From Magallana gigas (lineage: Eukaryota): a stretch of DNA of 64,000 nt. Positions 14,201-64,000 of the stretch are shown piece after piece. The notes beneath the pieces are model-generated. The model worked only from the letters and a program-made list of their open reading frames with translations. It was not told the origin of the DNA and searched no databases. Every line of letters begins with the position of its first letter. The first letter of the stretch is position 1. A program made the translations under genes and the position numbers. Location of the stretch: the NCBI RefSeq assembly GCF_963853765.1, contig NC_088853.1, forward strand, positions 52,948,001-53,012,000. Direction: 5' to 3'.

Positions 14201-16434
14201 TTTTTAAGGCACATTCCAAATTCGGTCCAATGATTGTCATCAGCAGACAAGGTCAAAAAGATTGTAGGGGGTCCAAGACATCCAACCATTGACAGTAAAT
14301 TATAAAGTGCATTTTTGAAATAAGTAATAGTCCCTTTTATGTTCTTCATGAACATGTATGAATTTTCCAACACATCAGAGGCCTGGCTACTATGTCTTAT
14401 GTCAGCAGCTGTAAATCTGTCATCTCTACTTTTACACATACGCATATGAACCCCTATTTCACTTTTAAGCAATGAGACATTGTAAGAAACACACGAGTGT
14501 AACAAATATGTTAAGTTATACCTAAACTCTGCATGTCTATTATATAACCTATATTTGAAATACATGGAAGGATTAACATGGATATCTCTGTTATGTCTTA
14601 AACCATTAACTCCAAATGGAAAGAGCCAGGGAAATGCCATTTCTTCTCCTGATGTTAGATCAAAAATGTTAACAGGTTGATGAGTAGAGCTTGAAACCTT
14701 AATTACCCCCTCTCTTAAAAAGGATGAAGCATTGAGTTTAGGTGTATTTACATCTAAAGGTGTCAAAGAGGAATAGTTAAAATTGCTATCTAAATGAGAT
14801 GATGATTCATACCCATTTAACAATTCATTATTTAGATCAGAAAGTATGTCAATACTTTGTTCAAGTTTGATTTCCTTATACAGTGGGTTGTTTTCTATAA
14901 GCCACGTAAGAGCATCTTTCAAATTTTTGCAACTGATAAAGTGTTTATTAGTGACGGCTGGTTCACTATGTAAAAAATGCACAGATAAAGTTGCATTTTC
15001 TTTAAAATTTCTGGGCAACTGATTAGCTATTTCCTGTACATTCATTGGCAAGTTTAGCACCAATCCCTTCTCAGCATACTGTCCACCGGGTAAAATATGA
15101 ATTGACAAAAAAACTTGAATTAAGGAAATCATGCGTTTCTCTAGTAATGATAGTTTTCTCAGTTCTGTTGGTACACGACCATTATCAAGGTTGTTAAGCT
15201 TAGTACTCAACGGACACATTTTATTTTGTTTTATTCTACCATGACAATAACGACAGAGAACATCATCATATGACAAGTTTAACATTTCTGCAGTAGCTGT
15301 AATTTGTTTCAGGTTAACTATCTGATCAGGAAATAAAATTCTATCACATCACCTGCAATAACTTGATGGCTTCTGTCGAATATGAAGTTCATATTCTGAA
15401 TTGTGAAAATCACAATTTAAGAATTCCACTGATGGTTCTAATGTTTCTACTGTACAAGTGTAACCTACATTAGTCATATTAAACCCATTAATTGTGTTGT
15501 TTTCATTTGCAACATCGGCATGATCAGAAATAATTGGAAATGTTTCTGCACATGTACTTACAAACATTTCATCTTGAGATGTGCGTTTTCTTTTACGAAT
15601 GGTGCTTTTTTTCAACTTAAAACTTTTTTCTGTCTGTTTTGCATATGAATGGAAAAAGTGAGGCTCAGGTTGCTGATGTACTTCATAATTAAAAATAACT
15701 GGGCTTAATTCATATGAAAATCCACCATAATCACGGTTTAAAAAATCAAGTATGCTGTGAATACTGTCAAAGTAAAGCAAAATTGCATTTCCAGATTCAT
15801 CCAACAAACCATCTTCATTTCTTTGATGTGAATCAAAAATAGCATACCTGTCATTTTCAAGATCACATATGACTGAAATAGTCAATCCCCTAGCTGTAAA
15901 CATTAAGTAAGGACTTATGATTGACGCCTGATACATGGAATTTTCAAGAGTATTTTGTCCGAATTCAAATTCATTATTGCCACCTACCCTACCGATATCG
16001 GTTTGAATTTCATAATCAGGAGAGTGCATGCTATGCGGCATCCAATCTCGTAGAGACCTTGGTAAATCATTGTGTGTAAGATATCCCGAAACACCCCGTA
16101 CTCTGGCAATATATGCGTACAACGATGTACCTTCGTTTACTAGATTATCTATATCACTAGAGGTAACATCGTTTACCCATGTTTGTGGGCGATCCCTCGA
16201 CATGCCAGTTAAGACTACAAGAGCTAAAAATGCAATAGCTGTACTTTGAAGTCCATTGAAAGGACAAAACTTTTCAATTCCTTGATGAATTCTACCCATT
16301 ACGTGTCTTACCATTTTGTCTGCGCCGATCTGACAGTTCCCACCAACTCGATTTGCCGCCAAATTCTTCCGAAAACAATGGAAAGTAGTCTTGGTCATTA
16401 AACAGCTTCGATTTGGTGTGATAAAGTCATGCAT
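11292..16434 (-). pseudogene. Helitron RepHel protein with an N-terminal herpes-tegument-like (C76/VTD) deubiquitinase domain; inactivated
   Basis: Rep motifs PPTIFLTLS, RIEFQNRGSPHMH (HUH) and YYVCSYLCK. PIF1 motifs GGAGTGKS, IIDEISMV, GDFFQLRPV, QFPLILCYARTIHKVQG and AYVALSRV. ORFs 16434-15349, 15285-13447 and 13416-12025 share one frame, separated by single stops (YCR*CDR, SS*EAAYR). Two further stops (12025, 11995) and a +1 shift in a T-run near 11970 precede 11921-11292. Confidence 0.93.
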
Positions 16435-17599
16435 CTGAATGATCGAGACTAGTCGAGAAGATTTACGGAATACTTCTATTTGGATGGAAATCGAACAAAA
16501 ACGATAACGTTTTATACTTTATTGATTCCTCAAGTAACTGTTTACGGCATAAAATAAGTTTAAAATCAGATATGTGTATCATCTATAATCAAAAATATAT
16601 TTGACATCATGTATATAAAACACAAAAATGTGTGTATCGTACGTTTTTATGCGATTACTAAAATTTATTTTTCTAAAAATAGGGACCTGTCGCTTTGTCC
16701 CTAGTAAATAATAAGCAATTTTATATATTCCATATAAAAAGGTTTATATTTTAAATGATGCACTTTATGGAAGTAAAAATAGATCTTATCTTGTAATTTT
16801 TTAAGAGAAAGAACCTTCTAATGTACAATCTATTTAATGTATAGTTAACTTTCAATTCTGAATAACTTCTCCCTCCTCAATCCCATACACCAAAACTTAA
16901 ACTTATATGTATAGAGCAGCCCGGTCCTCCGGGCTGCAATAAATTACTAAGCCTACCTTATTGTTAATATTAAATCCAAGAAACCCGAACAAATTATAAG
17001 TACCACCCCGCACGGACTGAATGAAATACACAACTAGCCTAACAGGTTTCCCAAGTTAAATTTAGAACAAAAGAAACGGAAGGGAGAATCGAGCTATAAA
17101 CAAGACTATGAACGAAACGATGAACGAGACAGGAAACGAAGACTGGGGCCCACCTATCTACCCAGGGGAGTGAGTTGACTCGAACCTTAGAGAAGATTCC
17201 ACGTCAACCACCGGATTTAAGTAAAATGTAATTTAGCTCGAACTGGTGTTTTCCAAATGATAATGTAAAACTACGAAACTGTCCGAATGTAAAAAAAAAA
17301 CCTAGAAAAACAATTAATATATAGAAGTGCAAAAAACTTTGAATTCCATCCTCATTATATTAACAATGACGAAAAATAAATGCCCGGCATAAGATGTAAA
17401 GAACTGCAATATATATAAGGTGTTAAAAAAAATATGAAAATTATTAGTAACAACTGTATTTTTAAAATTTCAAGATAATTCCAGAATGTCCAAAAACTCT
17501 AAATAGTAACCTTGTATCTGCATAAAACAGGGATAACCTCATGTCTTATAAAAAATTCTTATAAATTAAATGTGTATTTAAAAAAGATTTAAACGTTTT

Positions 17600-29377: not shown

Positions 29378-30931
29378 CCAAAGCATCCTTAGCCTCAGGG
29401 AATTCAAAGTGTGAAAATTTTGCAAAGGGAGATAATTAGGAATTTATGAAAATTTTCGAGAAATTTTCAAAAATCTTCTTATGAACCATAAGACCAGGAA
29501 AGCTAAAACTTGTGTGAAAGCATCCTCAGGTAGTGCAGATACAAAATTGTGAAATTCATGACCCCCGGGGGTAGGGTGGGGCCACAATGGGGGGTCGAAG
29601 TTTTACATATGAATATAAAGAGTAATTCTATAAAAATCTTCTTCTCAGAAACAAATCGGCCAGAAAAGCTGAAACTAGTGTGAAATCCTCCTCAGGTAGT
29701 GTAGATTCAATGTTGTGAAAATCATAACCTCCAGGGGTAGGGTGGGGCCACAATGGGTGGTCGAAGTTTTACATAGAAATATATCTTCTTCACATAAACT
29801 GATCAGCCAGGAAAGCTGACACTTGTATGGAAGCATCCTCAGGTAGTACAGATACAAAATTGTGAAAATCATGACCCCCGGGGGAAGGGTGGGGCCACAG
29901 TTGGGGGTTGAAGTTTAACATATGAATATATAGAGTAATTCTTTAAAGATCTTTTTCTCAGACACTAATTAGCCAGGAAAGCTGACACTTGTGTGAGAGC
30001 ATCCTCAGGTAGTGTAGATTCAAAGTTGTGAAAATCATGCCCCCCGGGGGTAGGTTTGGGCCACAGTGGGGGGTTGAAGTTTAACATATGAATATATAGA
30101 GTAAATCTTTAAAAATCTTCTTCTCAGAAACTAATCAGTCAGGAAAGCTGAAACTTGTGTGAAAGCATTCTCAGGTAGTGTAGATACAATGTTGTAAAAA
30201 TCATGACTCCCGGGGGTAGGTTTGGGCCACAATGGGGGGTCGAAGTTTAACATATGAATATAGAGTAAATCTTTAAAAATCTTCTTCTCAGAAACTAATC
30301 AGCCAGGAAAACTGAAACTTGTGTGAAAGCATCCTCAGGTAGTGTAGATACAATGTTGTGTAAAAATCATGACCCCGGGGGTAGGTTTGGGCCACAATGG
30401 GGGGTCGAAGTTTAACATATGAATATAGAGTAAATCTTTAAAAATCTTCTTCTCAGAAACTAATCAGCCAGGAAAGGTGACATTTGTGTGAAAGCATCCT
30501 CAAGAAATGTAGATTCAAAGTTGTGAAAATCATGCCCCTGGGGTGGAGGGTGGGGCCACAATGTGGGGTCGAAGTTTATATAAAGTAAATCTTTAAAAAT
30601 CTTCTTCTCAGAAACTAATCAGCCAGATTATTCTTTATAATTGTTAAGACTTTGGCCCCAGGACAATTCTTTGGCCTCACAAGAAGGTTCAGAGTTTGAT
30701 GTAGGTTTATATCACATATATAAACTATTGTGAAGGATTTTTTTGAGAACTGCAATACTCAACATATGATATGACTATAAAATCATCCTGTTAGAAATGG
30801 GACTTGTTTATAAACATAAGGATATCTAGGGGAAAATGTATTTTATTTATACAGGATCTACATGTATTGTACATTATCTAGATAGTTTGTATTATGACTC
30901 CATTAAGCTGATTTTATCATACCTATTGTTC

Positions 30932-38682: not shown

Positions 38683-39068
38683 CTGAGTGTAGGTCTTAAC
38701 CTCAATCACTTTACGAATTAAGGGAATGTCCGTATGGTATCTGGTCACATGGACCACACTGACCGAAACAGAACTCATCTTTAATAATTCCAACAGAATC
38801 TAGCAAACGAATGAGAGCTTGACGGTAATGCGCTGCAATTTATCAACTTGGTACCTAAATGACCGCTGTTGCCTAGTTTCGGCAGTTAGATATGACGTCA
38901 TTTTCAGTTATGACGTCAGAATCTTGTACTTGAGTCCGCGCTAAGAGTTAAGCTAGGCTCTTCTAGCCAGGCTACCATGACAAACGGGTTTAAGCAATGC
39001 TTACTTCATATAGAGTCTTATAGAGTGCAAAACATTTATTCGTTTTTTTTAATGGTAGAAATAAAAAA
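38683..39068 (-). promoter_or_regulatory. Diverged inverted copy of the viral RING-gene promoter (two CRE palindromes, TATA-like, Inr) plus its coding start
   Basis: Reverse complement aligns with 59510-59830. TGACGTCA at 38893-38900 and 38911-38918. ATG 38778 encodes MSSVSVSVVHVTRYHTDIPLIRKVIEVKTYTQ, followed by a GTATGT donor. Confidence 0.8.
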
Positions 39069-54981: not shown

Positions 54982-56892
54982 ATGGTGGACTAGGCTAGTT
55001 CGCTTCAGGAGAATTGTTATTGTTTTCATGAATTGTGCGAGTTCAATGGAGTATTTTAAGGTTACTTTTTGTTCATTGGTGTTGTTAACGTAAGTATCTT
55101 CATTACTTGTATTCTTGTGATCATGCTTTTAGCTATATTATTCGTATTTTCGGTTGGTAATACCTCCTTTGTTTACACATGAACTACACGCTAGAAAGTA
55201 ACAGTTATTTTTCTGGGTTAAATTTTCTCTTTATCACCACTATTCCTCATTTGAATCTGCTGTAAAAAAAAAATTAGTATGAAATTGTGTACCGTGAATT
55301 ACATCGATTTGTGTCGTTTAATTAATTTTAAAATATAATATGTGTGTCAATAGCATACTTTGTTTGCCCATAATATTGGAATGGAAATAGTTGAAGTTGT
55401 CATACAAATAACAAAACACAAGAGATCTAAAATAGGATTTTTACCGATCAATATTTTCTGATTTTGCAATTTTGTTTGAATACAAGAATGTATTTCAGAT
55501 GCAAGAAAATTATTCGATAAATGCAAAAAAATTGTTCATAAAATTATCATTTTCATGTGACAATTATCTTTAACGATCAAAGAGCGGTTTAATTTTTTCT
55601 TTATTTGTCATACATTTATCCATCGTCTTAATTTGCCAAATATATGAAATATAAACCCTCAGCTTTTAATATTTCACGTCTAATTTTCAAGAATATGAAC
55701 CATTTAAAATAGTCCATACATGCATTTTGCGTGAAATCAATATAATATAAAAACATTAAATGGATTGTTTTGTGATAAATATACTCTCACACGACGTGTT
55801 TATTTTGTAATTCATTGTAAAAGAAATATCTTCAATTAATACTAAAACATAGGTGAATGTGAGTTTTTTTCTTCATTTACAGTTTTTACAAAAATATAAT
55901 GACGTTCTTAACAGAATAAGTTTTCATTCGCAAAACTGTAGTCTATTTTTTGAAAAAAACTAAAAATGTTCATTCAATGAGAGGAGAAAAAAAATTTGGT
56001 TTTTTTTTTACTTTTTGTTGTTGAAGCAGGGTGTTGCTGAAAATTTTAAGCTTTTTTTTTATTGGGTATAACTGGCTTTTTAATCTCAATTTTTTCTAGT
56101 TTACCTTAACTGTCAGAGATATTTTCTACAGAATGAAGATTGAGTAAAATTGGAATCTCTTAAGTTATTGATTGTGATAAGACAATGAACTTAAATTGTT
56201 ATATAATCTTTCATTTCATAATTTTCACTGATGTATTCTTTAAAAAAAATAGCACTTTTTAATAGAGTAACACTTTTGTTTTTCAAAGGTTGTGAAGTCG
56301 GATGTGGAATTGCCCCAAGTTTCATTACCAGTAAGTGTGTTTTATTACAGTATGTATATAACGCAGAGACTAGGGTAATGATTCATTGTCTTTATACAGA
56401 TTTTGGTGAGAAGTATTATATATATTTTTAATATGTTTTCTTTCTGTAGTCCTCTAAATGTAGTGGAGAGAACAAGCCATTGGGAAGAAAAATCAAGAGT
56501 TCCATTATGCAGAGTGATGATGTAAGTCTTGTTAGAATACACTGATATTAATTTAAACATGCAAGCCCTATGTTGTAATGGAAATTAATAGAAAAACTAA
56601 AATTTGACACAAAGATTGCTTGTGACCTGTAAATATGTCTGACTGAGCTTTCAAATTGGTCATTTGTGCAAGTTTGAGGCCACTGTAAAAAAATGTGCAT
56701 CCGTTACCATCAAGTAGAGGCATTCAGGATTATCATGCAAAAATTTGTGTATATTAAAGTTGCAAAGTTGTAAACTACGTTAGTGATTGACCGACCCATT
56801 TTGTAGAAGTTGTAACATTTTAAAACTGTTGGAAACAATAATGTACATTGTAAGTGAGACTTGATCTTCATGCAATCCACCTAGATACACCC

Positions 56893-56988
56893 GAGGTGTG
56901 TTCAACAGGGTGAGCTCCAAAATTCCCTATATCAGCAACACAAAATATAGCGAGTGCTTGCGAGCGGGCTCTCTGCTGAACACACCTC
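56893..56988. mobile_element. Very small MITE with 12-bp TIRs
   Basis: gaggtgtgttca … tgaacacacctc. Confidence 0.5.
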
Positions 56989-57786
56989 AGTACTCGAACA
57001 ACTTTTTTTTGGTTCCTGTAATGACCTTACAACTTAATTTGTGTGTTGTGTCATTATTTTTAGCTGCCAGATTTGTGTTCCTCGAAAGAAGAATCTCCAT
57101 GTATAAAAGAGGAAGAGGTATTTGTATAGATTTAGACAATAAAATGATTTCTTTGGTGATACATTTTAATATATTTAACGGTGGCAAATTTGCAGATCTG
57201 CAATGATAGCTACCTTCATAACCCACATGAATCATCAAAGAGAACATTTTATTGTTTATATTTACATCTTTCTTTAACATCTTTCTTGATAAATGGATTG
57301 TTAAAAGTAAGTAAAATTAGCTAAAGTTATAGCCAATGTACATCAGAACGTTAGCTAAAAAAAAACAGCCACATTTTTCTTTTGCGAATTTGCAAGTCTG
57401 ACATTATGCTTATTTCGTAGAGTCCATGATTTTTATTAGGTCGCTGTTAGTTTAGACCAATCGATAAACAGGGCTAGTAGATTTAAGTCCTATCAGTTTC
57501 TACAGAGCTATGAATTACAATTAATTTCCATTAGAAATATAAGGAATCATTCTTGATGAATGTAAATATATGCAAGTAAGTAGTATAAGGCGCCTAGCTT
57601 GGGGGTTCAACTGAGTGCACTTTTTATGCAAATGAGGTAAAAAACTGGGTTTAAGGTTGAAATGAGTTTTATTGAACAAGAACATCAAAAATCATGAAAC
57701 AAGTGAAGAAATAAGCGCAAAAAAAATAGAAAACATAGAATGACTCTCTGGAAATTACATTGTTCAGAAATTCTCTTGCAATTTTG

Positions 57787-58506
57787 TCAGATAAAGTTCA
57801 TACGAGTGGGAGAATCCACGAACACATTTTTTTTGTTGACTTTCATCATACGGCCTGGTTTTTTCTGCTCCGTTTTCATTTCCTCGTCCCAATCTTCATT
57901 GGATTTCTGGGTTTTTGCTTTTTTCTTGTCTTTGACTCCTTTCCCTTTGTTGGTGGGAGGGTGATTTTCTTTTTCTGGGCAGTCCTGAGCCTCGTGTTCT
58001 TGGTCTGCCCAGTATTTGTTTTTGAGATTTTCTGGGCAATCTTTCATCCAATGGCCTTCCTTTTTGCAGATGAAACAATTGTTGTTTGAAGGTCTACTGT
58101 AGTTAGTACTCTGCTGGGAAGTCGAGCCCCGGTTGTTTTCCTTTGTAGGGCAATCCGGCGAATAGTGACCTGGTTCTCCACAGGTGTAGCATGAGCCGGG
58201 TTTTTTCCCCTGTGTAGTTTTTGGCTGCGTAGTTTTGTTCATTTCGTCCAGTTTGTTTAAGATCAAGCTAGTATGTTTTCCTATTTCGTCACTCATCAGA
58301 TGGAGACTGTTGAGAATTCCTTCCTGGGTCGTGGTAATGATCCCAAAGTCTTCCTTACTGATCACTGAATTGTAAGCAGCCATCTCTAAGTTGACTGGGT
58401 CCTGGGTCTCTGTCACTAGTGATGGATCGTAATAGCCCATTCCACTAGACATAGGATCTTGGCTATCGAGGAAGTTTTTAGACGTCATGATTTGCAATGT
58501 GCACAA
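57787..58506 (-). CDS. CCHC zinc-knuckle protein (two intact knuckles, one degenerate), acidic N-terminus and Lys-rich C-terminus
   Basis: CYTCGEPGHYSPDC and CFICKKEGHWMKDC (CX2CX4HX4C); open 239-aa frame; the true start may be ATG 58488 or 58452. Confidence 0.8.
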   Translation of the reverse strand: MCTLQIMTSKNFLDSQDPMSSGMGYYDPSLVTETQDPVNLEMAAYNSVISKEDFGIITTTQEGILNSLHLMSDEIGKHTSLILNKLDEMNKTTQPKTTQGKKPGSCYTCGEPGHYSPDCPTKENNRGSTSQQSTNYSRPSNNNCFICKKEGHWMKDCPENLKNKYWADQEHEAQDCPEKENHPPTNKGKGVKDKKKAKTQKSNEDWDEEMKTEQKKPGRMMKVNKKNVFVDSPTRMNFI

Positions 58507-58516
58507 GTCCTAGAGG

Positions 58517-58538
58517 GGCGCGAAATATGGGTATATAA
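58517..58538. promoter_or_regulatory. Putative divergent promoter with an E2F-type site and a TATA box
   Basis: ggcgcgaaa (reverse complement TTTCGCGCC) at 58517-25 and tatataa at 58532-38, between head-to-head ORFs. Confidence 0.35.
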
Positions 58539-59011
58539 TGAACTGCTTTTTTAATATTTTTTATAATTCTATCAAGGAAAAAAAATTGATGATGAGCGAA
58601 ATATTGAGTCTTACCTTTGAGGGTTATCAATTAGTAACAAAATGGAATGCAGATATGAACGAGGAAAAACAGAAAAAAATATTGAGGGTGTTAGCTTTGG
58701 CTCGGAACATCACCAGTTTGAATTTTCCTGCCCACATACTGTTGATATTAGCAGTAGAAAATCCTTTCCCCGGAAGACTAGCCACAATTTATTGGATTTG
58801 CGAGGGGGCCAAGATTCAATTACTCGAGAAATTAACAGGCGTCTCCTACAAGGATTATCAGAACTTCGGGTATCTGAGATGCATGTTCACCCATCAGGGG
58901 AGAGCTCGTCGTCGAGTGATTTCACAAATAGACAATATGAAGATGGTGGCTTTGGAATTTCTATACCTGAAATTGAAAACTCAGGCCATAGACGAAGAAA
59001 ACGGAGTGTAA
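58538..59011 (+). CDS. Hypothetical protein (157 aa; likely start ATG 58589/58592)
   Basis: Open frame inside a gene-dense viral-type cluster; no recognised motif. Confidence 0.5.
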   Translation: MNCFFNIFYNSIKEKKLMMSEILSLTFEGYQLVTKWNADMNEEKQKKILRVLALARNITSLNFPAHILLILAVENPFPGRLATIYWICEGAKIQLLEKLTGVSYKDYQNFGYLRCMFTHQGRARRRVISQIDNMKMVALEFLYLKLKTQAIDEENGV

Positions 59012-59169
59012 AGTTTAATATGGACATTCAAGTGTTGGAAATACCATACGAAGATAGGACAAGTGAATGGATGACTTTGGCAAATGACCGATTTCGTTTT
59101 CAAAGAAGAATTCTACAGACTGCAATTGTTTTAGAGCCTATGTTAAAAAGACATTTGTTAAATAATTAA
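58642..59169 (+). CDS. GADD34/ICP34.5/DP71L-like PP1-recruiting (eIF2-alpha phosphatase adaptor) protein
   Basis: C-terminus RRKRSVKFNMDIQVLEIPYEDRTSEWMTLANDRFRFQRRILQTAIVLEPML has an RVxF-type motif followed by W..LA.DR.RF.RRI. The start codon is uncertain (58642 or 58880). Confidence 0.85.
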   Translation: MECRYERGKTEKNIEGVSFGSEHHQFEFSCPHTVDISSRKSFPRKTSHNLLDLRGGQDSITREINRRLLQGLSELRVSEMHVHPSGESSSSSDFTNRQYEDGGFGISIPEIENSGHRRRKRSVKFNMDIQVLEIPYEDRTSEWMTLANDRFRFQRRILQTAIVLEPMLKRHLLNN

Positions 59170-59189
59170 TTTGTGTTTAAAAAAGACAA

Positions 59190-59540
59190 TTGTTCCAATG
59201 TATAATTTGTTTGAAAATAATAAAAATAATTTTATTTCATATAATTTCTACCATTTAAAATAACGAATAAATGTTTGTTCCAATGTTTGTTTGCTGAAAA
59301 ATAATAAAATTTTGACATTTTATGTCATAGTTTATTTAATTTCTACCATTTAAAAATAACGAATAAATGTTTGTTCCAATGTTTGTTTGCTGAAAAATTA
59401 AAAAAAATAATTTTATTTCATAGGTTTTTTAATTTGTACCATTTAAAATAACAAATAAATGTTTGTTCTAATGTTTGTTTGCTGAAAAATTAAAAAAAAA
59501 AATTATGTCATAGTTTTTTATTTCTACCATTTAAAATAAA
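59190..59540 (+). repeat. AT-rich ~90-95-bp tandem repeat (three full units plus partials)
   Basis: ttt(c/g)taccatttaaaataac(g/a)aataaatgtttgttc..atgtttgtttgctgaaaa begins at 59245, 59340, 59433 and 59521. Confidence 0.85.
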
Positions 59541-59657
59541 TGGTTTGCACTCTATAAGACTCTATAGGGAGTTTGCATTGCTTTAAACCCGGTTGTCATG
59601 GTAGCCTGGCTAGTAGAGCCTTGCTTAAGACTTGGCACGGATTCAAGTACAAGATTC

Positions 59658-59727
59658 TGACGTCATAAATGAAAATGACGTCATATCTAGTGATAAATAG
59701 CAGCGCACTTCCGCCCAGCACTCATTC
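59658..59727 (+). promoter_or_regulatory. Pol II promoter: two CRE palindromes, TATA-like ataaata and Inr tcattc
   Basis: TGACGTCA at 59658-65 and 59676-83, ataaata at 59693-99, tcattc at 59722-27, ATG at 59759; conserved in the paralogous module at 38.7-39.0 kb. Confidence 0.65.
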
Positions 59728-59758
59728 GTCTGCTAGATTTCTCGTAAATCGCCCAAAG

Positions 59759-61004
59759 ATGAATTCATTTGGAATTAGGCATTTTTATACGGATGTTCCT
59801 AATATTCGAAGAGTGTTGGAGATTGTAACATACCAGTGGGATGGGGAGAGCTACGTAAGGATTTCTTCGGAGGCTGTGAGTCTGTTTCAGGCCCGGGATG
59901 CTCCCCTGTCCCCCCTGGAGAGGCAAGGAAGAGAGCAGGACTTGGGGAGAGTTGACCTCTTGCCACCGCCGCCGCCTCCCCCAGGACCCGTTCCTTCACT
60001 GGAGGACGTCGTTGCGATGATGGAGAGGAGGCAGCAGGAGCAGCGGCAGTCAGCCCCCTCGACGCCGTCGCCTCCCCCACCGCCAGCGCCCAGAGTCAGT
60101 AGGGGACCGGCAGCACTCTTCCGGCGGGTCCGGAGTGTTGCCAGGAGGGCCATTCCCTACCGGAGGGGTGGCCCGGGGGTGCGATTTTCTTTGCCTCCCA
60201 GGTCTGCGGCGCCATCGCCTTTTGTGAGCCCTCCTAGGAGAGTTCCGGCCATTCGGCCGCCAGGACCGGGTATCACCGTAAGTAATGTTTTAATATATTT
60301 TACATTTATAATAATGTGATAGTATGATTGATTTTTGGTATAATATTTTAATTGGTTTTTTTTTTAGACCACCAGGGAGCCCATCGTGATTCCGGACTCA
60401 CCGGAGAGTCCCGACCCCTCCCCACCTGCCAGTCCGGGGGGTTACTCTCCGGTGAGCCCAGGCTACAGTCCGGCACCATCGCCGCCAGGGAGCCCTCTGC
60501 GACCAGCGCCATACCGCCCTGCACCACCACCAGCTGCAGCGGCCTTGGGGAGATCTCCAAGCCGACCGGTCCCACCCAGCCGTCCTGCCCCTCAGCTGCC
60601 CTCGGGATTTTTTTGAGAACCATTTTGAGAACGGCCACCCCTCCCCTGTACCTCCATACGAGGAAGCCGGAGGATCCGAGGCGGCACTTCACCATCGTCC
60701 CCAGCTGGGGGGTGAAGGTGGCTGAGGAGGAGGAGAGCCGGGGGGAGTGTGTCATCTGCTTCCGAGAAGACGCCCACATGCAGGTAAATAAAACATGAAA
60801 TGTTTTGTTATAATTTCATAATAAAATGCTTTGTAATTACAAAATACTTTTTTTTGAAAAAAAGGTATTTATGGATTTGCTTTTTCATTTTTCCAGATCA
60901 AGTGCCGCAGCTGCAGCCAGCAGAGGGTATGCTGCAAGTGTGTCCCGGGGGTGTACCGGAACATGAACCCCTGCCCCCTGTGCCGGTCCTTCGGAGAGCA
61001 GTAG
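59759..61004 (+). CDS. Spliced Pro/Ser/Arg-rich protein with a C-terminal all-Cys RING finger (putative E3 ligase); one -1 frame break
   Basis: Exons 59759-60277, 60368-60783 and 60897-61004; phase-0 introns GTAAGT..TTTAG and GTAAAT..TTCCAG. Spliced end CVICFREDAHMQ|IKCRSCSQQRVCCKCVPGVYRNMNPCPLCR. The frame shifts at a T7 run (60608-14). Confidence 0.8.
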
Positions 61005-61022
61005 TGGCGACTGCTAACAAAC

Positions 61023-61087
61023 AGCCCTTTTCAGGGCTAGCGCCACAGCCCTTTTAAGGGCTACCACCAACGGCCCTTTTCAGGGCA
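61023..61087. repeat. Three tandem mini-hairpins AGCCCT-TTT(C/A)-AGGGCT
   Basis: Copies at 61023-38, 61047-62 and 61072-87 (24-25-bp period). Confidence 0.8.
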
Positions 61088-61184
61088 AATAGAAAAAATG
61101 TGTACAAAAAGAAAAACACCAGTGGTCACTTACATGCACACACTTAAATAGAAAAGGTGAAGGTTTTTTATTTCATAAGTGAAG

Positions 61185-61829
61185 ATGTATTCTTACGATA
61201 CACTAGACCCTTTTAAATTGAAACATGAATTTACCATGGTGGTGGCGGGTCCTTCAAAATCGGGAAAAACACATTTTGTTAAAAAGTTAGTAGAAAATAG
61301 ACATTGGATTTCCCCTCCCCCCGAAAAAATCATATGGTGTTACCGAGAATGGCAACCCGCTTACGAATCTTTACAAGATCAAGTCAAGTTTATACGCAAT
61401 ATTCAAGAAGACGACGAGAAATTAGTGGCTGATTTCAGTATTCGTCACTTGTTAATTTTTGACGATATGATGGGAGGCAAAGCCATCGAGTCTATCGTCG
61501 ATTGGTTTACTCGCAAAGCTCATCATAGGAATACCAGTGTGATTTACATTACTCAAAATGTATTTGATCGAGCAAATCAACATCGTACTATTAGTCTCAA
61601 TGCTCATTATTTGGTACTGTTTAAAAATCCTCGAGATAAATCTCAAGTGACGGTGCTGAGTCGACAATTAGATATGCCTCATTTAATGTCTGCTTATCAA
61701 GAGTCTATTAGTATTCCTCACGGTTATTTGCTTGTAGATCTCAGTCCACAAACTCCAGATGAATTGAGATTAAGAAGTCAAATGTTCGATACCCTAAGTG
61801 TCTATATGCCTCGAGAATATAAATATTGA
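61185..61829 (+). CDS. Polinton/adintovirus genome-packaging ATPase (A32/FtsK-HerA-like)
   Basis: LKHEFTMVVAGPSKSGKT (Walker A), PPPEKIIWCY.EWQ, LLIFDDMM (Walker B), HHRNTSVIYITQNVF, RTISLNAHYLVLFKNPRD; intact. Confidence 0.92.
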   Translation: MYSYDTLDPFKLKHEFTMVVAGPSKSGKTHFVKKLVENRHWISPPPEKIIWCYREWQPAYESLQDQVKFIRNIQEDDEKLVADFSIRHLLIFDDMMGGKAIESIVDWFTRKAHHRNTSVIYITQNVFDRANQHRTISLNAHYLVLFKNPRDKSQVTVLSRQLDMPHLMSAYQESISIPHGYLLVDLSPQTPDELRLRSQMFDTLSVYMPREYKY

Positions 61830-61867
61830 ACACACGAGGAGTTACCTTCATTTGGATTGAGTTCATC

Positions 61868-62902
61868 ATGGCACGACAAAACAAAGTGTTGAGACTTTTG
61901 AAACTTTTATATGGAGAAAAAGATCCACAGAAAAGGCAGGAAATCATCGAATTAAGCCGTAAAACCTTAATGAAATGGTTTCTGATAGGAGCTAAGAATT
62001 TACTGAAAGGAACTATTCCTGTCGACAAACAGACTCAACGGTTTATTGAAAAACACCGGGATGATTTGAAAGTGATTGCTGACAAAAAAGTCAACGAAGA
62101 TAACAGATTGAAAGCCGTATTGAAACGAGGAGGAGCTGGGTTTTTAGGAGGGGTCATCATTCGTAATTTATTGAAATGGAATTTGAAAAAAGAAAAAATG
62201 GCTCAGCCTGGAAAGAGCAAATCGAAGAAAGCCATCAAAAAGAAATTAAGCAAAAAAGATTTTGTGAAGACTCCTCCCCTTAGGAAAGACTTGCCTGATT
62301 GGGTTCAGGAGCAAGTAGACTTGTATCGTCAAGATCAAAATCAGAAAAATCAAGGTGATTTAGAAGCCACTCTTCCCTATGCTGAGGATGATACCCCAAC
62401 TTTTCCCATTATCAATGCTAGGGCTATCCAGAAAATGGATAGGGCCATGCAAGGTCCTATAGGAGCGGCCAGAACCTCAGATAATGTAATGACTTCTACC
62501 CCTATTAAAGCAACTCAAGCTCCCTCTTTGTTTGATGATGTCATTACTATTGATCAGTCCTCTATTAAAGCACCATCTACCCCTACACTCTCGAAAAAGT
62601 CTCCAAATGAGTCACCGGCCTTAACATATTTCTGTCCCCACGATGGGGTCGGATTCAGACTGAAGGAAAATTACGATCGTCACTTGGCTACCGCTCATAA
62701 CCCCGCTTGGATTGAAAGTCAATCGAAAAGGAAAATAGTTCCTGTACCAGACATGTCTAACTTTACTTTAGGTTTCAAGAAACCTAAACTAAATTATTAT
62801 TGTCCCGACTGTCACATGGCTTTTAGACTTAAAAGGGAATACGAAAAACATAGACAAAGATATCACCCAGTAGCTGAACCATGGGTCCAGAATAAAGGAT
62901 AG
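61868..62902 (+). CDS. Conserved Polinton-type basic protein (NLLKG.IP…GG.GFLG) extended with two C2H2 zinc fingers
   Basis: N-terminal AKNLLKGTIPVDKQTQRFIEKHRDDLKVIADKK…KRGGAGFLGGVI; C-terminal CPHDGVGFRLKENYDRHLATAH and CPDCHMAFRLKREYEKHRQRYH; open frame. Confidence 0.7.
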   Translation: MARQNKVLRLLKLLYGEKDPQKRQEIIELSRKTLMKWFLIGAKNLLKGTIPVDKQTQRFIEKHRDDLKVIADKKVNEDNRLKAVLKRGGAGFLGGVIIRNLLKWNLKKEKMAQPGKSKSKKAIKKKLSKKDFVKTPPLRKDLPDWVQEQVDLYRQDQNQKNQGDLEATLPYAEDDTPTFPIINARAIQKMDRAMQGPIGAARTSDNVMTSTPIKATQAPSLFDDVITIDQSSIKAPSTPTLSKKSPNESPALTYFCPHDGVGFRLKENYDRHLATAHNPAWIESQSKRKIVPVPDMSNFTLGFKKPKLNYYCPDCHMAFRLKREYEKHRQRYHPVAEPWVQNKG

Positions 62903-63174
62903 AGTGTCTTTGGTCATCCTATAAAAGACAACCATAGATGAATTTTTTATCAGTTTTTAATGATGGCTTCTGATATAAAGAAGAGAAAAGAGGCGACAGA
63001 AAAGAAAGAAAAGAAAGGGATGAAAAAGGAGAAAAAAAAAGAACAATTCTTGTGAATGTAGATTGAGACCTCACATGCCCGTGTTGAACCTATTACTCTC
63101 TCCTGAAAGTACCCCTGTCTTAAAAAAATCAAGTGTTAAAACATTGTAGTAATGACTGCATTCATAAGATTTGC

Positions 63175-64000
63175 GAAATTAAAAATTTATTAAAAATCTT
63201 CTTCTCGGAAACTAATCAACCAGGAAAGCTGAAACTTGTGTGGAAGCATCCTCAGGTAGTGTAGATTCAAAGTTGTGAAAATCATGATCCCTGGGGGTAG
63301 GCTGGGGCACAATGGGGGATCGAAGTTTTACATAGGAATATATAGAGTAAATATTTAAAAATCTTCTTCTCAGAAACTAATCAGCCAGGAAAGCTGATAC
63401 TTGTGTGGAAGTATCCTCAGGTAGTGTAGATTCAAAGTTGTGAAAATCATGACCCCCAGGATTAGGGTGGGGCCACAATGGGGGGTCGAAGTTTTACATA
63501 GGAATATATAGAGTAAATCTTTAAAAATCTTCTTCTCAGAAACTAATCAGCCAGGAAAGCTGAAACTTGTGTGGAAGCATCCTCAGATAGTGTAGATTCA
63601 AAGTTGTGAAAATCATGACCCCCTGGGGTTGGGTGGGGCCACAATGGGGTGGTCGAAGTTTTACATAGGAATATATAGAGTAAATCTTTAAAAATCTTCT
63701 TCTCAGAAACTAATCAGCCAGAAAAGCTGACACTTGTGTGGAAGCATCCTCAGATAGTGTAGATTCAAAGTTGTGAAAATCATGACCCCCAGGGGTAGGG
63801 TGGGGCACAATGGAGGGTCGAAGTTTTACATAGGAATATATAGAGTAAATCTTTAAAATTCTTCTTCTCAGAAACTAATCAGCCAGGAAAGCTGAAACTT
63901 GTGTGGAAGTATCCTCAGGCAGTGTAGATTCAAAGTTGTGAAAATCATGATCCCTGGGGGTAGGGTGGGGCCACAATGGGGGGGGGGTGTTAAAGTTTTA
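63175..64000 (+). repeat. Cg170/HindIII-type ~166-bp satellite array (~5 monomers, runs off the window)
   Basis: Marker (c/t)atcctca at ~63248, 63414, 63578, 63745 and 63910; same monomer as 29400-30627. Confidence 0.92.

Follow-up and report, generated by a model that had tools for sequence, protein, structure and literature searches.

Animal Maverick/Polinton elements are known mostly by their core genes, and their dealings with the host are largely unstudied. Polinton size, terminal inverted repeats (TIRs) and target-site duplications (TSDs) are given as ranges in the available part of bioRxiv 2023.08.22.554363, and the oyster elements described below fit them. In nematode Mavericks, according to the accessible text of bioRxiv 2022.07.12.499685, the core genes are intronless and a high-GC, intron-bearing cargo lies near the left TIR. 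Introners, spliceosomal introns gained inside dinoflagellate Maverick-like elements, are described in the accessible text of PMC11957031. The searched parts of PMC8502044 and its supplement contain no RING or GADD34 genes among adintovirus accessory genes, none is named in the available portion of the coral polintovirus preprint, and the available portions of an animal DNA virus survey and of a bivalve transposon survey hold nothing relevant to the RING gene treated here. We found no paper linking an adintovirus with a ubiquitin ligase or a Crassostrea Maverick/Polinton with an E3, though Repbase and subscription journals may list such ORFs, and none pairing an adintovirus with ICP34.5; for RING fingers among Polinton accessory genes, the one listing was a fungal paper.

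The DNA analysed here, the window, is a 64,000-nt stretch of the Magallana gigas genome. Near its right end lies a Pro-rich gene that ends in a RING-like domain. The window copy is a pseudogene of a spliced Maverick accessory gene, inside a truncated element. We propose, with a probability of about 0.62, that it is a broken two-intron accessory gene of a truncated Maverick that combines a Pro-rich arm with a predicted RING ligase, likely acting on host defence proteins. What makes the locus interesting is the family to which it belongs, in which a predicted RING ligase is hypervariable and occurs in lineages with introns and lineages without; its interest does not lie in recoding.

Gene model, transcripts and promoter

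The gene and its promoter comprise the following features:

59658–59683, forward strand: two CRE/ATF-type octamers (TGACGTCA), at 59658 and 59676, upstream of the ATG
59759–60277, forward strand: exon 1, 519 nt, GC 0.61; a YQW N-terminal motif, then a Pro/Arg-rich region
60278–60367, forward strand: intron 1, 90 nt, phase 0, GT..AG, GC 0.16; an in-frame stop inside
60368–60783, forward strand: exon 2, 416 nt, GC 0.66; a Pro/Ser-rich region, then a conserved H-x-TIVPSW motif and the first Cys pair
60784–60896, forward strand: intron 2, 113 nt, phase 0, GT..AG, GC 0.20; interrupts the RING-like domain
60897–61004, forward strand: exon 3, 108 nt, GC 0.63; the later Cys pairs of the RING-like domain and the stop

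The start codon is the ATG at 59759. Since the frame of exon 1 (ORF 59669–60319) runs into intron 1 and stops there, a longer product requires splicing. The initial annotation had proposed three exons and two GT..AG phase-0 introns, with GC-rich exons alternating with AT-rich introns, and the recomputed coordinates and GC contents bear this out. When the 3′ part of exon 2 is joined to exon 3, the spacing that it had predicted, C-x2-C-x10-C-x2-C-x5-C-x2-C-x10-C-x2-C, is reproduced; it was also right to read the locus as a Pro-rich, spliced gene of viral type whose C-terminal domain is RING-like.

The paralogs give independent support for the exon–intron model. Thirty ATPase-anchored rows were inspected at the point where intron 2 sits: 19 of them (18 distinct loci) have a gap of 0, six have a gap of 105–113 nt, one has a degraded 8-nt gap, and the other four lack a RING match. 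The 18 intronless loci yield the same Cys spacing across this point. These copies are single ORFs of ~390–470 codons that run from the N-terminal motif, which is similar to the YQW motif of exon 1, through the RING. The splice sites are also conserved in other copies, as the two-intron reading had anticipated: the intron-1 donor is GT(A/C)AGT in 7 of 7 copies, and an AG acceptor is present in all six copies that reach it. In addition, a near-identical duplicate of the window copy splices into an uninterrupted 365-codon frame.

The transcript check covered contigs of four sequencing runs out of 24, RNA-seq libraries among them. One contig of one run skips intron 2 precisely (113 nt, GT..AG), at a depth of 2.2 and with a shorter side of 74 nt; the joint is absent from the other three runs. 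For intron 1, no junction is listed in any of the four, and a contig from the run with the intron-2 joint crosses intron 1 unspliced. Contigs of a second RNA library extend into both introns and may be DNA or pre-mRNA. Run X2, which has no cover over either intron but does cover the upstream sequence, was not counted as splice evidence. The two predicted junctions thus fared differently in RNA: 60783/60897 is supported by one contig, and 60277/60368 has none listed. The exon–intron model is real, and we infer that intron 1 is spliced as well.

The promoter with its CRE octamers is 94–100% conserved among the intron-bearing copies, and one CRE-type site is also found upstream of four of the six intronless RING ORFs checked. 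It is tempting to propose that host RNA polymerase II would transcribe the gene from this conserved CRE-bearing promoter and that the spliceosome would remove both introns. As for the CRE-driven, immediate-early type of expression that the initial annotation suggested, the motif is common across the window, with 9 found against 0.47 expected, and five of the nine fall outside the RING-gene promoter family. An isolated 90-bp remnant of the same promoter lies at 38887–38976 on the reverse strand; it is 91% identical, retains both CRE sites and has no RING gene adjacent. Elsewhere, in the full-length L085/L086 (C4:56.07–56.08 Mb), a 58-bp CRE-containing sequence occurs twice, inverted and 13 kb apart; it is possibly a shared promoter.

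The truncated Maverick and the lesion in the window copy

The RING gene lies between a GADD34/ICP34.5-like ORF and a packaging ATPase, in the left arm of a truncated Maverick/Polinton that extends from 57579 to ~63195 (~5.6 kb):

57579–57722, forward strand: left terminus/TIR, beginning AGTAGT; the same motif bounds 21–25-kb elements with a 6-bp TSD
57787–58488, reverse strand: CCHC zinc-knuckle ORF (PF00098, E=1.6e-12), with a syntenic homologue in full-length elements
58589–59011, forward strand: conserved ORF, 50% identical to the syntenic ORF of a full-length element; it overlaps the next ORF in another frame
58642–59169, forward strand: predicted PP1-targeting GADD34/ICP34.5-like ORF, with SVKF and ANDRFRFQRRI motifs
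61185–61829, forward strand: A32/FtsK-like DNA-packaging ATPase (PF04665, E=8.3e-7, above the cut-off)
61868–62902, forward strand: conserved Maverick ORF with C2H2-like fingers, 84% identical to the syntenic ORF in full-length elements (PF00096, E=0.005, below the cut-off)
62909–63195, forward strand: what remains of the following Maverick ORF, up to the end of the element, which abuts a 165-bp satellite array

The left terminus, at 57579, matches those of full-length elements, and no matching right TIR is present within 26 kb downstream of it. Both ends were found in four of the six elements tested, which are 21.1–24.8 kb long and have TIRs of 144–167 bp and a 6-bp TSD each. In their AGTAGT-ended TIRs, 6-bp TSDs and length of 21–25 kb, the sister elements are like the Mavericks/Polintons (adintoviruses, polintoviruses). 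They are also alike in gene content: pPolB (E=6e-58), rve integrase (E=4e-11), a C5-like protease (E=3e-4, just below the cut-off), the ATPase, and a capsid-like ORF that has no Pfam match and an Atlas score of 0.98 to double-jelly-roll clusters, in which 14–24% of members carry PF21738. The window copy differs in that only the left 5.6 kb are present, and pPolB, integrase and protease are absent. A 6-kb internally deleted relative of the same subfamily, L111 (G000:C9:40557880-40563935), has a terminus match of ~144 bp at both ends.

We take the SVKF and ANDRFRFQRRI sequences of the ORF upstream of the RING gene to be PP1-targeting motifs of the GADD34/ICP34.5 type. PF10488 matches this ORF at E=0.04 in the window and at E=0.002 in a paralog, both below the Pfam cut-off, and its true start may lie further downstream than 58642. 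The ORF is also kept in full-length elements. A KVRF/RVxF PP1 motif is described in the available part of PMC10743859.

Comparison of 57787–62902 with the full-length element L085 gives ~50% identity for the left-arm ORFs, 89% for the ATPase and 84% for the next ORF; these identities suggest that modules may have been exchanged between Maverick families. Arrays of a 165–166-bp satellite occupy 29494–30626 and 63190–64000, and the second abuts the truncation point, in a junction that is common to the duplicate copy. Just upstream of the left end, at ~56290–57290, are short exon-like stretches with GTAAGT donors, possibly a host gene hit by the insertion of the element. The window also holds Helitron Rep-helicase ORFs (Helitron_like_N, PIF1) at 10340–16518 on the reverse strand, split by stops, and a Mutator-like transposase fragment (PF20700) at 1417–1836.

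In this genome, which has 120 ATPase matches, each of the 25 exon-3 matches is followed within ~400 bp by a Maverick ATPase match on the same strand, and no copy of the RING gene was found outside Mavericks. In ten regions of 20–40 kb around copies of this subfamily there is no polB, capsid or protease match; one region has a partial integrase. Among the five copies that span start to stop, four are frameshifted by different lesions and one is open. Given these absences and the single open copy, the intron lineage may be dead in the genome. Could the oyster instead have domesticated the truncated intron-bearing copies, so that they now serve as host genes? The restriction of introns to truncated elements, the one spliced transcript contig and the conserved promoter would all agree with such a role. 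However, the different lesions in four of five copies, and the location of copies at unrelated sites with Maverick termini, make domestication highly improbable, and we retain the reading of an element's accessory gene.

In the window copy the gene is broken at a single site:

60608–60622, forward strand: deletion junction; the nearest sister has a net 37 nt more here, and the 10-mer at 60611 recurs at 60623

Here, 12 nt stand in place of ~49 nt, and ten of the 12 are a repeat of the downstream flank. The spliced window copy meets a premature stop at 60614–60616 (codon 256), upstream of the RING. The initial annotation had placed the lesion at a T7 run and offered a homopolymer error, a recent inactivating deletion or slippage giving two forms as explanations. 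The lesion is not a one-base T7/T8 variant. The T run is present in one of the six copies that span the site, and the other five lack it and are all longer there. The longer form is carried by four contigs from three runs, with one further joint containing unknown letters, and no piece bridging the short form occurs among the contig pieces listed in the four runs, a listing that excludes 136 pieces and comes from runs not known to represent the assembled animal. On the paralog alignment and the contigs we reject a homopolymer error and designed slippage; of the three explanations, the recent inactivating deletion is the one that fits, with its net loss of 37 nt and the duplicated 10-mer. A deletion with a short templated insertion is typical of end-joining repair, and the pattern resembles this.

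Under the slippage account, ribosomes would shift at the T run by design and produce short and RING-extended proteins. The run does stand directly before the stop, and the downstream RING frame is intact, with 0 changes relative to the duplicate over 86 codons. Yet the run, confined to one of six spanning copies, is a by-product of the deletion junction, and the duplicate and the intronless paralogs reach the RING without a shift, so that we give this account almost no credence. It is also improbable, if less so, that the break is an assembly artefact and that the animal's copy is intact, as the longer form in the contigs and the unbridged short form among the listed pieces might suggest. Consensus-calling homopolymer errors are of 1–2 nt, and the exchange of ~49 nt for 12 nt that repeat the flank is unlike them. 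In addition, the window copy differs from the duplicate by ~1–2% along ~25 kb, and private changes in it are therefore to be expected.

A genuine deletion can also be placed in time. The window copy and the duplicate share ~25 kb at 94–99% identity, and because flanks and satellite are included, the order would be truncation, duplication and then deletion; that is, the deletion with its short templated insertion would have arisen after the segmental duplication. Since the stop sits 167 nt upstream of the last junction, NMD would probably destroy the mRNA of the window copy, leaving it without a RING protein.

Introns and the hypervariable cassette

The introns are confined to one clade of six loci, all of them truncated elements. 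The ATPase tree places the intron copies in one clade (5 of 25 rows, support 100/99), as does the RING tree, which omits two proteins without the full motif (4 of 42 rows, 98/91); in the latter, their sister is an intronless clade, at 93/99. Two distant and degraded family members in the genome are continuous at the intron-2 point. A genome search with intron 2, of a kind that skips very common words, returned six matches, all in intron-bearing copies of the RING gene. The likeness between intron 1 and intron 2 is 0.74, against 0.71–0.73 for shuffled AT-rich controls. A 17-row RING tree leaves three clades unresolved. As to the DNA context of distant homologues, 0 of 33 candidates were confirmed in viral contigs and 0 of 452 in metagenome contigs.

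Because most sister elements carry the gene without introns, gain in one element lineage is likely, and both introns were likely gained once. A single gain is the shortest account, since the intron copies form one clade and the distant members are continuous at the intron-2 point. The event would have preceded the divergence of the alleles of that lineage. In fact, the introns must be old, because alleles already saturated at synonymous sites have both introns at the same positions.

The same shared positions would also be expected if the introns were ancestral, the gene having been captured from a host with its introns and the other lineages having lost them. An AU test does not reject a topology in which the intron clade branches first (p=0.285), and in nematode Mavericks too, as characterized in the accessible part of bioRxiv 2022.07.12.499685, the cargo region near the left TIR is high in GC and little conserved. 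Against capture stands the lack of any non-Maverick copy in the genome, with 25 of 25 matches beside the ATPase. Furthermore, two intronless ingroup clades and the two continuous distant members would require several losses, versus one gain. We therefore regard ancestral introns as unlikely, though deserving of attention, and favour the single gain.

The RING region is under purifying selection. Over 86 codons, the window and L009 differ with pS 0.91 and pN 0.145, and between the window and L003, dS is 0.23 and dN 0.085. In exon 2, the 5′ part shows conservation when read in the frame of exon 1 (pS 0.66, pN 0.16), and none in the alternative frame that was tested (pS 0.09, pN 0.36). Identity between the window and L009, in 150-nt bins, is 92–100% upstream, 47–79% across the gene and 95–99% in the ATPase, and the edges of the dip coincide with the start and stop codons. 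The same holds among four full-length intronless elements of one clade, in which the gene is 56–67% identical in two comparisons and 67–84% in a third, and the flanks are 91–100% identical. The GC content is 0.60 in the RING gene versus 0.38–0.42 in the core genes. The gene is thus a GC-rich hypervariable cassette. From the identity pattern we infer allele exchange and a host-facing role for the cassette; elements would swap whole alleles by recombination in their near-identical flanks.

The two introns behave differently between the window and L009. Intron 1 has an identity of 0.785, within the shuffle range (0.727 ± 0.047), and intron 2 has 0.875, above the shuffled maximum of 0.831. Between these copies, intron 2 also exceeds the saturated synonymous sites in conservation, a hint of constraint or of later gene conversion.

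The RING-like domain and comparison with known systems

A profile built from nine in-genome sequences and searched against 1.84 billion proteins (E≤0.001) found 55 proteins; named homologues come from Crassostrea angulata and Ostrea edulis. The distant homologues share the Pro-rich arm, a P-x-W motif and the Cys pattern, and the Atlas cluster that includes one of them, from Ostrea, has 68 members, most of them from Mollusca. The best solved relatives by profile are RING1B (E=0.005) and Mdm2. Pfam zf-RING_2 matches 22 of 54 family members at E≤0.05, all below the Pfam cut-off, and eight Cys fit cross-brace spacing, with five residues between ligands 4 and 5. The domain had been described as an all-cysteine RING with Cys at the usual His position. 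The second half of this description stands, as Cys and not His occupies ligand 4 in at least 90% of the 54 sequences. An all-Cys ligand set is an assumption, since at least 90% of these sequences also keep a His between Cys2 and Cys3, and at least 90% keep a ninth Cys. C-x-I/V-C and C-P-x-C-R are conserved and, V/I changes aside, occur in all nine in-genome members aligned. In RING E3 ligases, such I-C and P-x-C-R residues supply the E2-binding hydrophobics and the linchpin Arg. On these sequence features, the family is predicted to consist of RING ubiquitin ligases.

A structure model made from 54 sequences has a pLDDT of 80; it replaces an earlier one from nine sequences, with a pLDDT of 57 and structural matches of Z<4. 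Its structural matches are nearly all RING or U-box proteins (top Z 4.5, rmsd 2.7, 55 aligned), all with Z<5, and Foldseek gives no match at E≤0.001. The model thus points weakly to a RING-like fold. The best viral fold matches, to NCLDV, nimavirus and OsHV-1 RINGs, are weak (E=0.004 at best), and the search yields no standout match to ICP0 or IE2, which excludes nothing.

Alternatively, the domain may serve as a zinc scaffold of RING-like type for protein binding, as in TFIIH p44 or arenavirus Z, and have no ubiquitin ligase activity. In the fold search, chains of TFIIH p44/Ssl1 score level with E3 RINGs (Z 4.3–4.4 vs. 4.5), the spacing of five between ligands 4 and 5 and the extra conserved His and Cys are compatible with a scaffold, and an arenavirus Z cluster match at 0.83 serves as a lead only. 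On the other hand, the best sequence-profile matches are RING1B and Mdm2, the I-C and P-x-C-R motifs are kept in the nine in-genome members apart from V/I changes, and the majority of the fold matches are E3 ligases. On balance we judge a scaffold somewhat unlikely and prefer a ligase.

For a ligase, a simple scheme can be proposed. The conserved RING would recruit host E2~ubiquitin, and the variable Pro/Ser-rich arm would pick the substrate. Together with the neighbouring GADD34-like ORF, the RING gene might constitute a small counter-defence module. The boldest form of this idea is that the module is new, comprising a GADD34-like PP1 adaptor and mollusc-wide Pro-rich RING ligases, in an arms-race cassette whose alleles are swapped and which gained two introns de novo; we offer it tentatively, and the odds are against it as a whole. 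If it were true, the stop inside intron 1 would let retention of that intron act as a switch between full and RING-less products, and the oyster genome would offer a dated example of intron gain in a virus-like element, intron-bearing and intronless forms occurring together in it. A variable predicted E3 ligase beside a predicted eIF2-alpha phosphatase adaptor would mean that these elements carry host-interaction genes like those of infecting viruses, an idea that can be tested in a farmed species. Two introns present or absent among sister elements also make a clean case for the study of intron gain and loss.

Among described cargo, the nematode Maverick genes (wasp proteases, krma kinases) offer one comparison. 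The oyster gene differs from them in that it is intron-bearing in some and intronless in other sister elements of a single genome, and in that we could find no host copy outside Mavericks. The dinoflagellate introners offer another; in contrast to them, oyster intron 2 matches only six copies of its own gene, the two introns are no more alike than shuffled controls, and no active introner is evident.

As for the protein, herpes ICP0, baculovirus IE2/PE38 and the NCLDV, nimavirus WSV222-like and OsHV-1 RINGs are alike in bearing a RING-like domain on a long low-complexity arm. The RINGs of ICP0 and IE2 are C3HC4, with His at ligand 4. The initial annotation had likened the oyster gene to ICP0 and IE2/PE38, and the viral type of the gene holds good, but the likeness is no more than an analogy: no homology was found, and the oyster RING is C-terminal and, lacking the ligand-4 His, does not have the C3HC4 pattern. 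The RING-like domain of TFIIH p44 has a similar all-Cys spacing. The C-terminal domain of TFIIH p44/Ssl1 is also alike in fold score, but the oyster gene differs from it in having no vWA domain, in its viral context and in its E3-type I-C and P-x-C-R motifs.
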